A DNA stretch of 64,000 bases from Escherichia phage vB_EcoM_VR25 (NC_028925.1); one strand, 5' to 3'. Positions 39,702 to 44,326 are shown, numbered from the stretch's first letter. Notes: generated from the letters alone by a model not told the origin. Made by a program: numbers and translations.

Positions 39702-40386
<685 letters not shown>

Positions 40387-40387
<1 letters not shown>

Positions 40388-41064
40388 TATATTACCTTAT
40401 TAATTTTATCAAAAAGTTCTTCGAGTGTGCCATCGTTTTTAATAACAATGTCACTAGCTAGTGGTGGAAGTCCAGCTTCCGTAATGTGTGTATCAGTAGA
40501 ATGATTTGCTTCATCGCGTTCTACAAAGATTATTGTAGCACCCATCGCCCGAAGCGAATCAAGTTCGTTCTTTTGGCGAACATCTGGGACAACGTAATAT
40601 TTATATCCAGAATAGAGGTTGTCAAGATAATCGCATGCAAAAGTTTTAATCCAAAACATGCTGTCGAACTCTGTACAAACGATGTCAGTTCCAAGGGTCT
40701 GCATGAAACGTCTAACTGTCCAGGGCTCAACATTATTTAGTGTGTGAAATTCAATGATTTTACGAACCATATCTGGATTCGGAAGGTCAAGATTATATTG
40801 CTGTTTCAACCATTCAAGAGCGTCAACCAGAAGAATATGAGCTTCAGTGTTGTTCATTATCAAGGTTTTTTCACGGTCATAACCTTGTCCATCAAAATTT
40901 TCCAGGGTCAAATTGTGTGGCAGGTCTTGACGAACCCACGCTTTATAAAGCGCTTCTTTAATTGGACCAGCAAGTTGCCACTTTGTTCCGTTTTGACTAA
41001 TAACATAATCAGCAGTCGTATCTTTACCACTGCGTTTTTTACCCACAATCGCAATTAATTTCAT
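40387..41064 (-). CDS. 1: Deoxynucleoside monophosphate kinase gp1
   Basis: 225 aa, ATG start; MKLIAIVGKKRSGKDTTADY P-loop; very similar to T4 gp1. Confidence 0.9.
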
Positions 41065-41660
41065 ACGTTTCTCATAGATGGATGCATTGACTTAGACCTG
41101 ATTTCCTGTTGCATTGCTGCATTACTATCAATCTGTGGTCTACCTTCTATTATTATACCATCAATTTCTACAGCAAAAGACTTAAAGTTAAAAGTTGCTG
41201 TTGCATTGATAGCAGGGTCAGAATCTTCTTTATATGAATACTGAATCTCTGACAGGTCGGACGGCCATGCTCCATAGTAATGGATTGACATGACAATTTT
41301 GTCCTTGTTATTATCTAAGATATGAAGCGTGACCGCTTCGGGACGACCCTTTGGATGCCATGCTTTTGATTCGTGTGTGATGTAATTGTTAAGCGAGAGC
41401 ATCCATTTATAGATATCAAGCCATGCCCTTAGGTCTTTGTCACACAGAAAGTTAACAATCAGCGGGTCGAATTCTATTGTACTACCAGGAAGACTGGAGC
41501 GATTTATACCTTGCGTTCCGCCGGGGACATCTGTAACAGGGATGTGAACCCCTGGGAGGGTAACGTCTTGAACGTTGAGTTTAAAAGTCTGTGTGAGGTT
41601 TGAATCGCTTACCTCTAATATAAAGTTAGTCGTGTTAGTTTGATTATATAAACCTGACAT
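41061..41660 (-). CDS. 3: Tail completion/sheath stabiliser protein gp3
   Basis: 199 aa, ATG start; ...DSNLTQTFKLNVQDVTLPG...IHYYGAWPS... matches T4 gp3. Confidence 0.85.
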   Translation of the reverse strand: MSGLYNQTNTTNFILEVSDSNLTQTFKLNVQDVTLPGVHIPVTDVPGGTQGINRSSLPGSTIEFDPLIVNFLCDKDLRAWLDIYKWMLSLNNYITHESKAWHPKGRPEAVTLHILDNNKDKIVMSIHYYGAWPSDLSEIQYSYKEDSDPAINATATFNFKSFAVEIDGIIIEGRPQIDSNAAMQQEIRSKSMHPSMRNV

Positions 41661-41745
41661 AGTGCACCTTGTTTGCTTTAAACCAATCAGTGTTATAATG
41701 GTTCTAGACCTTTTGTCCTTACCAATAACACTGACCGATAATAGA

Positions 41746-42420
41746 TTATTTTATTAATGTGTTAAGTCTTAGCTTAGTCATAAACGGATAACGTTCCAAC
41801 ATTGGCTTTACCCAGTATCGAGGATGCAATTCCTTTTTATATGCTAGGACCAACTCTCGAGCTTGCTCGACGGTATCAACTCCGAAGTTTTTACACATTT
41901 CTTGCCTATCTTTTTCCCACCGGCGCTTTCTCAATTCATCCTGAATCTCTTTATTTTTAAAATGTCCATTATTGCGAGAATGTTTTGTGCCCTTGGTTGG
42001 ACTGTAATGTCTTCCTTTGACAAACCCATCCGGAACATCTTCCCATGGAAATAGTTTTATCGATTTGACACCATTAGTAAAGTAAACTTTACCGGTTTGA
42101 CTTTTAGAAATATTGTCAGCGTGTCTACGTCTTAACCAGCCAAATAATTTATTATTACGTTTCAAATACTTGCTTGACTGACTCATAGATGTGGCGGCAA
42201 AACTTAAACCTGGATTTGTAGGATATATTTTAACCAATAGTTGATGGGCTACATAATGTTCCTCGGGAGTCAAATCGACTAGGTTATCAGGAGCATTTGA
42301 ACCACCCATACATTTCGGAATGATGTGATGAGATTCTTTATATGAAATCAGGACCCTGTTACGGGCCCTTTCAATTAACGATGAATATATAAACTGATAA
42401 TTCAAAGTGAATTTCTCCAT
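41746..42420 (-). CDS. Free-standing HNH homing endonuclease, 224 aa
   Basis: ATG start; HNH motif [30 protein letters not shown]; inserted between genes 2 and 3; start overlaps the last 19 nt of gene 2. Confidence 0.8.
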
Positions 42421-43238
42421 ACTTTCTGTGAAGAAAATCTTTTGCCTTTTGAAAAAAACTGCTGAAGGGGAAGTAATACCACATTTGCCCAGTCGCTGGG
42501 CTTGATTTCAGTGATAGTACCTTTTATATTACCAGGTATATATGCTTTAATCATCTGGTCAGCCCCTTTAAATCCCTTCACCTTTGACCAATCAATCTTC
42601 AGATGAGTCTTGTTCGTAATCGTAGGAGTATTAGCATATTGCTTAAGAAGTTCCTCAAGGAACTCTTGACGCGCCTTCGGTGGAATATAGTGCAAGTTCA
42701 AACCATACATCAAATTGTGTTTGCCTAACCCAAGATAAATGATTAACGGATATTTGTCCCAGTATGGAAGAGTATCCTTATGCTTTGCATCATAGATATA
42801 AGCATAAATCTTACCTGGTTGAGGTTTAGCCGTTACGTGTCCTCTGACAGCTTTCTTAATTGTCTCTGCGAACCATCTGGCAGATTTGGTGTTGCTTGCA
42901 GCGCCTTCGTTAGCAATCTTATCTCTTATACTCTTTCTAAAGCTATTCACCATTATCAGTTGGCGTTCAGTCTTCGTAAGTTTACCAGCAGGTTTCTTTT
43001 TGAGTTTGGATACTTTATAAGCAGTCTGAATTCTCGAATGATATCTTGACATGCTTTTGGTAAAGGTTGAATAGTTGATTCCTTTCTCTTCAGCAAACTT
43101 TTTCGAGGTCATTCCCTTTTCTTTTGCTGTATAAAATTCAACCCCTATCTCAACCCATTGTTGTTCGGATTTACTGGGTTTTGGACCTGGTTTATCTGCA
43201 GATTCATTGATAAATGTAAAAATACTCATCCTTTCCAT
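42402..43238 (-). CDS. 2: DNA end protector protein gp2
   Basis: 278 aa, ATG start; order and length match T4 gp2 (274 aa). Confidence 0.8.
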
Positions 43239-43675
43239 CCTAATTTTTTCAGTGAGTTTTCAGTGATTATCCTGAACGTTATACCCATTTTATCTGCCGT
43301 AGATTGTGCAGCTTTCCATTTGTCCGAGTTAACAGCCCAGGTATACATCTCGTTAATAAATCTCTTTTTGCTCGCAGCGGTATTATTAACAGGTTTGGTT
43401 GGTGGTCTTGTTTCTTTTAATGGCTTAACTTCGAAAAAGAACTGTTGTCCTGTATCAAACTTAACCCAGAAATCCATATAATACCTGCGCTTTTTACCAT
43501 CGGCATTGCTAAAGTAAGGGATGATAACAGTCTCAGAACCCCATTGAACAACGTTCGGATGGTTGTCGAGCCATCTCATAAGCCATGCCTCCCAGCTTGA
43601 CCTGTATTGTATTTTCTTCCAGTCGCCCTTATATTTTTCTATATTAGTGGGCTTAAATTTCCCGGAGTATGCCAT
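43226..43675 (-). CDS. 4: Head completion protein gp4
   Basis: 149 aa, ATG start; length and composition match T4 gp4 (150 aa). Confidence 0.85.
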
Positions 43676-43685
43676 ATAGCCTCCT

Positions 43686-43693
43686 AATAAATA
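43686..43693 (+). promoter_or_regulatory. Putative late promoter variant (AATAAATA) for gene 53
   Basis: AATAAATA on the plus strand about 30 nt upstream of the gene 53 ATG; a closer TATAAATG would start transcription downstream of the SD. Confidence 0.3.
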
Positions 43694-43703
43694 TTGATAT
43701 ACT

Positions 43704-43711
43704 TATTTATA
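43704..43711 (-). promoter_or_regulatory. Late promoter (TATAAATA) for gene 4 and downstream late genes
   Basis: Exact TATAAATA on the minus strand about 28 nt upstream of the gene 4 ATG, followed by TAGGAGG SD. Confidence 0.6.
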
Positions 43712-43723
43712 AATGGAGGCTTT

Positions 43724-44326
43724 ATGCTTTTTTCATTTTTTAACCCAATTGATTATGATGCTAAAACAATCAGAAAAAACCCTGCATCATTGACGAAAGA
43801 AGATGTCTTAAGCATTCCAATGACAGACATCTTCAGAAATTATCGTGCTTACTTTGATAAGGTCGCGGTCAATTATACACCAAAAACCTATTACATCGCC
43901 GGAGCTCCGAGACCTGAAGAATTATCATATCAGCTTTACGGTAACACGCAGCTATATTGGGTTCTCCTTATGCTCAATGATATCTATGACCCTTATTATG
44001 GTTGGCTTTGTACCCAAGAAGCATCGTATCAAGCATCAATTCAGAAATATTCGAATGTCGGGGGTAATCAGGTCCTTTATCATGTGAATGAAGATGGTGA
44101 AAAGTTCTGGAACCTTGTTTCTTATCCTGATAATCCATACACATGGTACGATAAAGGTGACAAGAACAAATTATATCCACAATACGAAGGTCCATTAGCT
44201 GCAGTGGATATCTATGAAGATGCTATCCGTAAAAATGAATACAAACGCGAAATAAAAATAATCGACCCGGAAGATATTGAGTCATTTATTTCCGCACTTA
44301 TCCGTGAAATGGAGAAGGCGCTATGA
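43724..44326 (+). CDS. 53: Baseplate wedge protein gp53
   Basis: ATG at 43724 after GGAGG (track ORF starts at an upstream TTG); MLFSFFNPIDYDAKT...MTDIFRNY... matches T4 gp53. Confidence 0.9.
   Translation: MLFSFFNPIDYDAKTIRKNPASLTKEDVLSIPMTDIFRNYRAYFDKVAVNYTPKTYYIAGAPRPEELSYQLYGNTQLYWVLLMLNDIYDPYYGWLCTQEASYQASIQKYSNVGGNQVLYHVNEDGEKFWNLVSYPDNPYTWYDKGDKNKLYPQYEGPLAAVDIYEDAIRKNEYKREIKIIDPEDIESFISALIREMEKAL

Follow-up and report, generated by a model that had tools for sequence, protein, structure and literature searches.

What is an open reading frame (ORF) with an HNH motif doing between two structural genes of a T-even phage, and by what route did it get there? The question is raised by a locus in the window, by which we mean the whole 64-kb stretch of DNA that was analysed. 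An earlier note had read the ORF as a free-standing endonuclease gene of the seg/mob kind and as a likely recent insertion. The comparisons described below suggest, with a probability that we put at roughly 85%, that the ORF is a functional free-standing Mob (HNH) homing endonuclease gene residing on a 659-nt cassette whose insertion has separated the last sense codon of gene 2 from its original stop codon.

Locus and neighbouring genes

A megablast search of region 41000-43700 against phage genomes places the window in Gaprivervirus, within the VR7/SP18-like group of T-even phages, and the flanks of the locus are 92-98% identical to about 30 phage records. The ORF list confirms a 224-aa ORF with an HNH motif at 41746-42420, on the minus strand and with an ATG start, and the claim that it lies between structural genes 3 and 2 is borne out by PHROG and Pfam matches and by the annotation of near-identical phages (Table 1). 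The ORF and genes 2 and 3 are all encoded on the minus strand, and genes 2 and 3 are both intact. The endonuclease gene is not contained in an intron or intein and has the same orientation as its neighbours, while gp53 and gp5 come after gp4 on the plus strand. The sequence of the intergenic hairpin upstream of gene 3 is common to alleles with and without the insert (filled and empty alleles); the hairpin is accordingly a backbone element of the host genome, situated at the downstream boundary of the insertion site.

Table 1. Positions of the genes, signals and variable elements at the locus, in window coordinates
Feature	Position	Strand	Basis or remark
gp1, dNMP kinase	40387-41064	minus	Pfam DNMK, E 5e-77
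Gene 3 (gp3), tail tube terminator/sheath stabiliser, downstream neighbour	41061-41660	minus	Pfam PF06841, PHROG 45, annotation in relatives
Intergenic hairpin upstream of gene 3, just 3' of the common TAA	41677-41735	minus	RNA fold -26.1 kcal/mol, z -3.5
TAA stop, used by the endonuclease gene where the cassette is present and by gene 2 where it is absent	41746-41748	minus	Junction alignments
Mob-type HNH homing endonuclease gene, likely 219 aa	41746-42405	minus	TTG 42403-42405 to TAA 41746-41748; PHROG 655, starts of homologues
Inserted cassette, 659 nt	41750-42408 (or 41749-42407, 1-nt boundary ambiguity)		Missing from empty-site relatives (alignments)
HNH catalytic motif, S25-H54 of the 219-aa protein (H26, H27, N41, H50, H54)	42244-42333	minus	40- and 69-sequence alignments
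GC-rich hairpin AGGGCCC-GTAACA-GGGTCCT, codons 13-19 (within codons 12-20) of the endonuclease gene	42350-42369	minus	Flagged as terminator-like
In-frame upstream extension from ATG 42418-42420	42406-42420	minus	Gene 2 sequence, probably not endonuclease
GGAG Shine-Dalgarno-like motif, 9 nt upstream of TTG	42415-42418	minus	Built from gene 2 Trp-Arg codons
Gene 2 (gp2), DNA end protector	42402-43238 (longest ORF); 42402-43229 (as annotated in relatives VR7 and VR26)	minus	PHROG 429, E 2.2e-78
Hypervariable patch at the gene 2 3' end, codons VV[LM]LPLQQF[FMY]SKGK	42438-42483 (core 42450-42464)	minus	Diversity; candidate recognition/cleavage and immunity site
gp4	43226-43675	minus	ORF list
Late-promoter motif TATAAATA, sole exact match near the locus, upstream of gene 4	43704-43711	minus	Pattern search

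Filled and empty junctions

The earlier note had suggested comparing the junction between genes 2 and 3 in relatives that lack the insert. Among 20 aligned Gaprivervirus genomes (the window plus 19 fetched regions), seven alleles are filled (the window, VR7, P479, TH22, TH55, UPEC07 and fPSFA) and 13 are empty, lacking exactly 659 nt at the junction, with flanks that are 92-99% identical. In the empty alleles, ...VWRNS-TAA closes gene 2 and is followed directly by the intergenic hairpin. In the filled alleles, gene 2 ends ...VWRNSL-stop, and both the extra Leu codon and the new TGA are supplied by the cassette, which is placed between the Ser codon of gene 2 and the original TAA; the endonuclease gene stops on that old TAA. 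The insertion splits the sequence ...GAAATTCA from TAATCTATT.... In Tequatrovirus, comparison of BW-1 with T4-like genomes reveals an insert that is also 659 nt long, and in Dhakavirus QL01 and C6 have inserts of 644-650 nt relative to five empty genomes. Empty sites therefore exist in Gaprivervirus, Dhakavirus and Tequatrovirus. The earlier note had named presence of the gene at this site in all relatives, with no empty alleles, as the outcome that would speak against its reading; since that outcome is not what is seen, the reading of the gene as a mobile insertion stands.

Could the pattern of presence and absence instead reflect repeated deletion of an ancestral resident gene rather than gain by homing? 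The lineage is old at this site, and empty alleles that have filled-type haplotypes at the end of gene 2 (RZ, L015, CJ20 and SP18) may have arisen by loss. However, one and the same exact junction, with the native ...RNS-TAA restored, is found in all 13 empty Gaprivervirus alleles and in those of the two other genera, and independent deletions would not be so precise. Loss through recombination with an empty allele is possible, but such loss is part of the normal life cycle of a homing element. We regard repeated deletion as very improbable.

The lineage is strictly faithful to the gene 2/gene 3 junction. All 13 orthologues that were looked up lie directly downstream of gene 2, as do 60 of 60 among the full-length matches listed (75 records), and the hosts of the full-length carriers belong to Escherichia, Shigella, Salmonella, Klebsiella, Citrobacter, Enterobacter, Erwinia, Serratia, Kosakonia, Yersinia and Acinetobacter. 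Base composition gives no foreign mark, as the GC content of the cassette is 37.3% vs 40%. Most close relatives lack the gene, which rules out a packaging role of the kind that HNH proteins have in cos phages and likewise a partnership with gp2 or gp4.

Age of the insertion and exchange of alleles

The claim that the insertion is likely recent holds only in part. Association of the gene with the site is old, since the same junction is occupied in many genera and Gaprivervirus alleles are up to 13% apart, the VR7 allele differing from the other Gaprivervirus alleles by that amount. What looks recent is the exchange of alleles. The window and VR7 are 99.2% identical in gp1 and gp3, 100% identical in the intergenic sequence and 98.5% identical over most of gene 2, and 118 differences between them fall within a single 554-nt patch (41930-42483) that comprises the N-terminal two-thirds of the endonuclease gene together with the last 80 nt of gene 2. 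In this patch the window matches P479, TH22 and fPSFA at 97-98%. In the window allele, a backbone like that of VR7 is thus combined with an N-terminal two-thirds and a gene 2 end like those of P479 and TH22; in other respects nothing essential sets it apart from the VR7 and P479 alleles. The cassette explains this local mosaic in an otherwise VR7-like genome.

Protein family and catalytic motif

The sequence comparisons support assignment of the gene to the free-standing HNH endonucleases of the T4 Mob class and not to the GIY-YIG seg class. The earlier note had named seg and mob genes together. The mob half of that statement agrees with the homology to T4 mobB, a likeness that the annotators of VR7 also cite, and the seg half does not hold, because GIY-YIG families were absent from the Pfam, PHROG and NCBIfam scans (Pfam and NCBIfam up to E 10). 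In tblastn searches, residues 1-102 align with T4 mobB at 48.6% identity (E 6e-22), and matches were also obtained to genes of Aeh1 and phiM12 that carry the annotation mobE. A tblastn search of 50,697 phage records returned 1,062 records, about 1,000 of which match only residues 1 to ~100 and 75 of which are full-length; the full-length matches are confined to genes at the gene 2/gene 3 junction. Some 160 environmental contigs match residues 1 to ~100-140 only. More distant homologues share the N-terminal domain alone, and those with examined context lie at other loci. Similarly, a single-protein scan of IMG/VR and a metagenome scan with an alignment of the orthologues found only N-terminal relatives at other loci. 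T4 Mob proteins are built from a common N-terminal HNH domain and a distinct C-terminal domain (PMC2790892, PMC2988022), and the window protein likewise combines the shared N-terminal HNH domain with a C-terminal domain specific to its lineage. No further Mob paralogue occurs elsewhere in the 64 kb of the window.

The residues expected of an HNH site (general-base His, structural Asn and metal-binding His) are in place: an alignment of 69 homologues shows H26, H27, N41 and H54 without exception and H50 in at least 90% of the sequences, and the motif aligns residue for residue with the HNH motifs of McrA and pyocin AP41. No Pfam family is matched above threshold, and the HNH models remain below their gathering scores (PF01844, 16.3 bits vs 21.4, E 0.011; PF14279, 15.8 vs 27.5). 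Since the protein matches PHROG 655, 'homing endonuclease', at E 5.7e-56, these models evidently do not capture the Mob subgroup well. The NCBIfam scan gave only a sub-threshold match to the IscB HNH domain, and the PDB sequence search gave only marginal HNH motif matches with E values of at least 0.18.

An AlphaFold model of the protein (pLDDT 90 overall, 95 over residues 1-105) places two beta strands (residues 24-27 and 42-45) and a helix (residues 47-60) around the motif residues, followed after this core by a beta-hairpin region and then by a C-terminal helical domain (residues 152-218). The top Foldseek matches of the N-terminal model are almost all HNH domains, including Cas8-HNH, the Gme HNH nickase, McrA, IscB and colicin E9, and none of them is significant (best E 0.28), so the assignment rests on sequence. 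The N-terminal domain would act as an HNH (beta-beta-alpha-metal) nuclease, and the lineage-specific C-terminal helical domain would recognise DNA. Values of dN/dS among the Gaprivervirus alleles range from 0.08 to 0.14, a sign of purifying selection on the protein, which is thus no decaying remnant. Taken with the strong homology, these values also show that the ORF is not a chance reading frame.

Start codon and translation signals

Where does the endonuclease begin? The earlier note had the start of the ORF overlapping the last 19 nt of gene 2. This is correct for the longest ORF (overlap at 42402-42420) and not for the likely true start, for which the overlap is probably 4 nt (TTGA). The ATG of the longest ORF sits in gene 2 sequence that is also found in insert-free phages, VR7 has TTG in its place, and no homologue outside Gaprivervirus aligns to the extension that it opens. 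All 39 aligned homologues start with M-N-Y (or V/M-N/D-Y) at the position of the TTG, and an identical 219-aa gene call (P0001, 100%) is present in public assemblies. Because of these observations, the endonuclease is likely a product of 219 aa translated from the TTG, with a 4-nt overlap with the gene 2 stop. The PHROG 655 match begins at residue 7 of the 224-aa ORF. Orthologues of Dhakavirus, Tequatrovirus and Lazarusvirus, along with ten others, have an ATG at the position of the TTG, overlapping or abutting the stop codon of gene 2. The TTG of the Gaprivervirus allele is a weak start codon.

Several orthologues (e.g., those of C6 and BW-1) have an equivalent TGGA(G/A) sequence, derived from the conserved 'VW' codons of gp2, 9-10 nt upstream of the start. 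We infer that the GGAG motif within the gene 2 codons is the putative ribosome-binding site of the endonuclease gene. If that is the case, synthesis of the protein would be weak, starting from the TTG within the TTGA overlap and aided by codons of gene 2.

Transcription and the intragenic hairpin

Besides the late motif upstream of gene 4, neither a MotA-box-like motif nor a further exact late motif was found in 41000-43800, and the count of the late-promoter motif in the window is no higher than expected by chance. From its position and from what is known of T4, we take the motif upstream of gene 4 to be the late promoter of 4 - 2 - endonuclease - 3. Since this is the only exact late motif and there is no MotA box, the endonuclease gene seems to lack a promoter and to be carried along by transcription of its host genes, and it would be read as part of the late 4-2-3 transcript. 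Late motifs with one mismatch inside the endonuclease gene (e.g., 41834-41841) were considered as a promoter of its own and rejected, as they are not conserved in orthologues.

A second feature that may bear on expression is the GC-rich hairpin near the start of the coding region. A hairpin of 6-8 bp occurs at the same codons in 13 of 14 orthologues, formed by other stem sequences. When the 14 junction orthologues were compared with synonymous recodings, the native sequence was the more stable (mean z -2.43, with p<0.05 for 10 of the 14), and five further lineages gave z values from -1.3 to -3.0. The same procedure applied to 55 Mob-like genes at other loci, including T4 mobB, gave a mean z of -0.06, with 5% at p<0.05. 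As judged from these values, the hairpin is conserved by way of synonymous changes and is selected in the junction lineage only; it is not a side-effect of the peptide, because the 55 Mob-like genes elsewhere show no excess stability. The same 55 genes rule out that the hairpin is a general feature of Mob genes or a by-product of the RAxxRAL peptide. The conserved intragenic hairpin thus offers a clean case of synonymous-site selection for RNA structure in a selfish gene.

The T4 mobE gene is also promoterless, and a weak intrinsic terminator located 27 nt after its AUG has been shown experimentally (PMC2790892). By analogy with this internal terminator, the hairpin in codons 12-20 may further limit expression of the window gene. 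The hairpin of mobE has a U-tract and was shown to terminate transcription, whereas the U-tract of the window hairpin is poor; since a proper U-tract is lacking, a terminator role for the latter is uncertain, and slowed translation is another candidate effect.

A variable gene 2 end as candidate target and immunity site

If the gene is mobile, an obvious question is which sequence its product acts on. Nucleotide diversity in the 20 Gaprivervirus genomes reaches 0.12-0.20 in 42410-42509, compared with values near 0.02 (local maxima of ~0.08) in the greater part of genes 1, 3 and 2, and the gene 3 side has no peak (0.004-0.02). In Dhakavirus, diversity peaks at the same codons, VV[ML][LM]PLQQF[M]SKGK, and in BW-1 nine of 16 nt at these codons differ from T4-like genomes; the sequence on both sides of this cluster is identical, including the 29 nt that separate it from the insertion point. 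In three genera, the ~90 nt of gene 2 closest to the insert thus form a hotspot of diversity that is linked to the gene.

The variation in Gaprivervirus resolves into a few haplotypes. Haplotype A, the window type, is found in six of the seven filled alleles and in one of the 13 empty alleles, that of RZ (Fisher p 0.0012, a statistic that ignores shared ancestry). Haplotype B is restricted to empty alleles (eight genomes, VR26 among them), and so is an A/B recombinant haplotype (TH15 and TH40). Haplotype C occurs in filled and empty genomes alike, namely in VR7 and in CJ20 and SP18, respectively. The haplotype link, the recombinant haplotypes and the exchanged patch that spans the junction are consistent with co-conversion, as seen in natural isolates and not in crosses.

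Of 55 empty alleles in an IMG/VR sample, 31 have the Met codon of 'QQFM' and 24 lack it, whereas among 19 filled lineages only one has it and F, Y, V, Q or H is found in its place. Before the last five lineages were added, the counts were 0/14 filled vs 31/55 empty (Fisher p ~1e-4, again ignoring shared ancestry). The rule that no filled allele keeps the Met was tried on six more phages and was contradicted by dhabil, which is filled and keeps 'QQFM' but has changes in the upstream VVMM codons. Because of this exception, the link between the Met codon and the gene is a statistical association only.

From these patterns, the patch at 42438-42483 is probably the target or the immunity site, with carriers protected by recoding. 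In a mixed infection with an insert-free relative, the protein would nick or cut the DNA of the relative, likely in the last ~90 nt of gene 2 at the equivalent of this patch, and recombinational repair would then copy the cassette together with adjacent polymorphisms from the carrier, whose own recoded gene 2 patch would protect it. A similar pattern is known for T4 MobE, for which a polymorphic stretch at the nick site lies next to conserved codons and differs between carriers and non-carriers (Wilson and Edgell 2009, PMC2790892), and the variable gene 2 patch of the window lineage shows the same pattern as the MobE target.

An alternative explanation is that the element is mobile and that its cut site is not the gene 2 patch. 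The patch would then be hitch-hiking donor DNA, with crossovers forced into the conserved IKPSDWANV block upstream, and the target would have to be sought elsewhere, for example in sequence spanning the insertion point, in gene 3 or in the hairpin between the genes. Cleavage at a distance of hundreds of bp from the endonuclease gene is common for free-standing T4 enzymes (reviewed in PMC2988022), the border of the patch coincides exactly with a block in which no phage varies, and dhabil is filled and yet keeps 'QQFM'. Moreover, the splitting of the sequence at the insertion point could alone give immunity. The changes in BW-1, however, form a tight 16-nt cluster separated by the 29 identical nt from the insertion, which a contiguous donor tract would not yield; the many different substitutions (F, Y, V, Q and H) at the same two codon groups in filled alleles suggest repeated change; and a diversity peak is missing on the gene 3 side. 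Even with hitch-hiking, the co-conversion tract must cover the cut site, and the cut would therefore be located in or beyond the gene 2 patch. On balance, we consider a cut site other than the patch the less likely case, yet a live alternative and a stronger one than the others discussed here.

Another possibility is that the protein is a former homing endonuclease that no longer homes and is kept for a different use, such as degrading or excluding co-infecting relatives with no copying of the gene itself, or because loss of the cassette would disturb how genes 2 and 3 are expressed. The cut-and-repair mechanism through which T4 endonucleases bring about marker exclusion is the same as that of homing, and this explanation therefore differs from the preferred one in degree only. 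Purifying selection shows that the protein matters and not that it homes, the TTG start is weak, the lineage has long resided at one site in many genera, and several T4 mob genes are without demonstrated activity (review PMC2988022). In addition, the empty alleles with filled-type gene 2 haplotypes (RZ, CJ20, SP18, L012 and L015) fit a situation in which resistant sites are common and chances to home are rare. On the other hand, presence of the gene is polymorphic among genomes that are 95-99% identical, with the same boundaries in three genera, the adjacent haplotype travels with the cassette, the exchanged patch across the junction is fresh, and the catalytic residues are all intact. Loss of homing is improbable in the light of these observations, and we favour a homing endonuclease that is still functional.

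A further proposal joins the variable patch and the hairpin. The recognised site may be the ~45-bp gene 2 patch encoding VVM[LM]PLQQFM, which carriers recode, and the lineage-specific mRNA hairpin may throttle the endonuclease. As a joint statement this is tentative, and we would give it slightly less than even odds. If it were true, this Mob lineage would be a ready-made model for intron-less homing by HNH endonucleases, the target patch would explain the diversity hotspot at the gene 2 C-terminus across T4-like genera, and the hairpin would have arisen independently of, or in parallel to, the internal terminator of mobE. The comparative data amount to a specific and cheap test of the target site and of immunity for a second Mob lineage.

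Comparison with known endonucleases and significance

VR7ORF161c, the P479 allele, RB32 ORF146c and the RB33 gene are orthologues of the window gene at the identical gene 2/gene 3 junction, and over the full length the P479, VR7 and RB32 proteins are 98.2%, 87.3% and 59.6% identical to the window protein, respectively. VR7ORF161c is annotated as a 'putative mobile endonuclease, similar to T4 MobB and RB32 ORF146c', and the RB32 and RB33 genes as a 'putative site-specific intron-like DNA endonuclease'. No paper characterising the junction lineage and no report of cleavage or homing by one of its members was found in the literature searched.

The closest functional parallel is T4 MobE, the only one among the Mob genes with functional data (PMC2988022). 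Its gene lies between nrdA and nrdB, and the enzyme nicks T2 nrdB beside a polymorphic region and co-converts the flanks (PMC2790892). Both the window gene and mobE have the orientation of their neighbours, encode an N-terminal Mob-type HNH domain with a distinct C-terminal domain and have a hairpin ~30 nt into the coding region, and the window gene appears to be promoterless as mobE is. In addition, the target proposed here resembles that of MobE, which co-converts flanking sequence, in being next to a polymorphic region flanked by conserved codons. The two differ in insertion site, in target gene and in their unrelated C-terminal domains, and mobE starts with AUG whereas the window gene likely starts with a TTG that overlaps the upstream stop. 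T4 MobB, cited by the VR7 annotators as similar, is the relative noted above for its homology over residues 1-102 and is itself uncharacterised (PMC2988022). Unlike the window gene, it lies between a-gt and a-gt.2, codes for a longer protein (264 aa) and shows no conservation of a 5' hairpin (z -0.07), and the homology ends after the nuclease domain.

Other endonucleases are alike in lifestyle or architecture. The T4 seg genes (SegA-G) have the same lifestyle, being intergenic and free-standing with intron-less homing and co-conversion (PMC2988022), but their products are GIY-YIG enzymes and thus belong to another nuclease superfamily than the window gene. I-HmuI, an HNH nicking endonuclease of the Bacillus phage SPO1 that has been cited as a structural model for MobE (PMC2790892), has a two-part design of an HNH nuclease and a separate DNA-binding domain. 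The likeness to the window protein is by architecture only, as there is no significant sequence or fold match between them, and I-HmuI, unlike the window gene, is intron-encoded.

The finding is real, correctly interpreted and ordinary, and the gene is already annotated in public phage genomes. GenBank has had it since RB32 (2006) and VR7 (2010), and selfish elements of this class are textbook knowledge, so as an annotation it carries little weight. The added value is modest and consists of a predicted target patch, a conserved putative regulatory hairpin and the recognition of the gene cluster as an endonuclease hotspot. The last of these bears on the origin of recombination boundaries in T4-like phages: in the gene 3-2-4-53 region, close relatives differ in the presence of as many as three distinct endonuclease genes.

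Recombination and endonuclease genes around gene 2

Comparison of the window with Gaprivervirus phage VR7 revealed 118 differing positions within a 554-nt stretch (41930-42483), while identity on either side is 99%. Within this stretch the window instead resembles P479, TH22 and fPSFA, which, like VR7, carry the filled allele (i.e., the gene 2|gene 3 junction with the 659-nt endonuclease cassette). As judged from the alignments, 41930-42483 is a clean recombination patch across the gene 2/endonuclease junction.

Endonuclease genes have a hotspot in the gene 3-2-4-53 cluster, as seen in the relatives that we compared over this region (L003, L004, L005, L123, L124 and L132-L134). Further homing endonuclease genes are located at the gene 2/gene 4 junction in P479, fPSFA, RZ, PSD2001, P8 and DK-13. 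In UPEC07, the gene 4/gene 53 junction is occupied by a gene with a homing endonuclease annotation; the same alignment pattern is displayed at that junction by TH22, TH55 and phage 212. In the window, where genes 4 and 53 with their junctions lie at 43226-43760, both sites are empty.

Escherichia phage dhabil is the only filled allele found with the QQFM codons that are typical of empty sites. These codons lie in the variable 3' end of gene 2 (42438-42483), the candidate site of endonuclease recognition and immunity, and just upstream of them VTLL replaces VVMM in dhabil. This phage is a potentially useful natural test of which portion of the candidate patch confers immunity.

Features of the flanking genes

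The main features of the region are listed below.

Coordinates of features flanking the endonuclease gene
Feature	Position	Strand	Details
Acb1-like gene, downstream of gp57	39702-40157	-	151 aa; anti-CBASS protein Acb1, PF23474, E 1.2e-59
Stable intergenic hairpin upstream of gene 3	41677-41735	-	-26 kcal/mol, z -3.5
Gene 2, longest ORF	42402-43238	-	278 aa from ATG 43238
gp4, head completion protein	43226-43675	-	PF08722 (TnsA-like endonuclease N-terminal domain), E 1.4e-21

The longest gene 2 ORF in the window exceeds gp2 as annotated in relatives (275 aa) by 3 codons; the ATG used in the relatives (43227-43229) overlaps the gene 4 stop codon as ATGA. The N-terminal 80 residues of the ORF match PHROG 32288, 'HTH DNA binding protein'. 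Gene 4 has very high diversity (~0.15-0.25 over 43235-43675) among phages that are otherwise alike, and some recent records already refer to gp4 as a 'head completion nuclease'.

The intergenic hairpin begins a few bases past the TAA, and its conservation extends to both filled and empty alleles. By eye, Dhakavirus also seems to have a similar hairpin, although its sequence differs. A strong hairpin follows gene 2 at ~10-35 nt in both alleles, this being the intergenic hairpin in empty alleles and one within the endonuclease gene in filled alleles. Farther downstream, the Acb1-like gene occupies the position of T4 57B.
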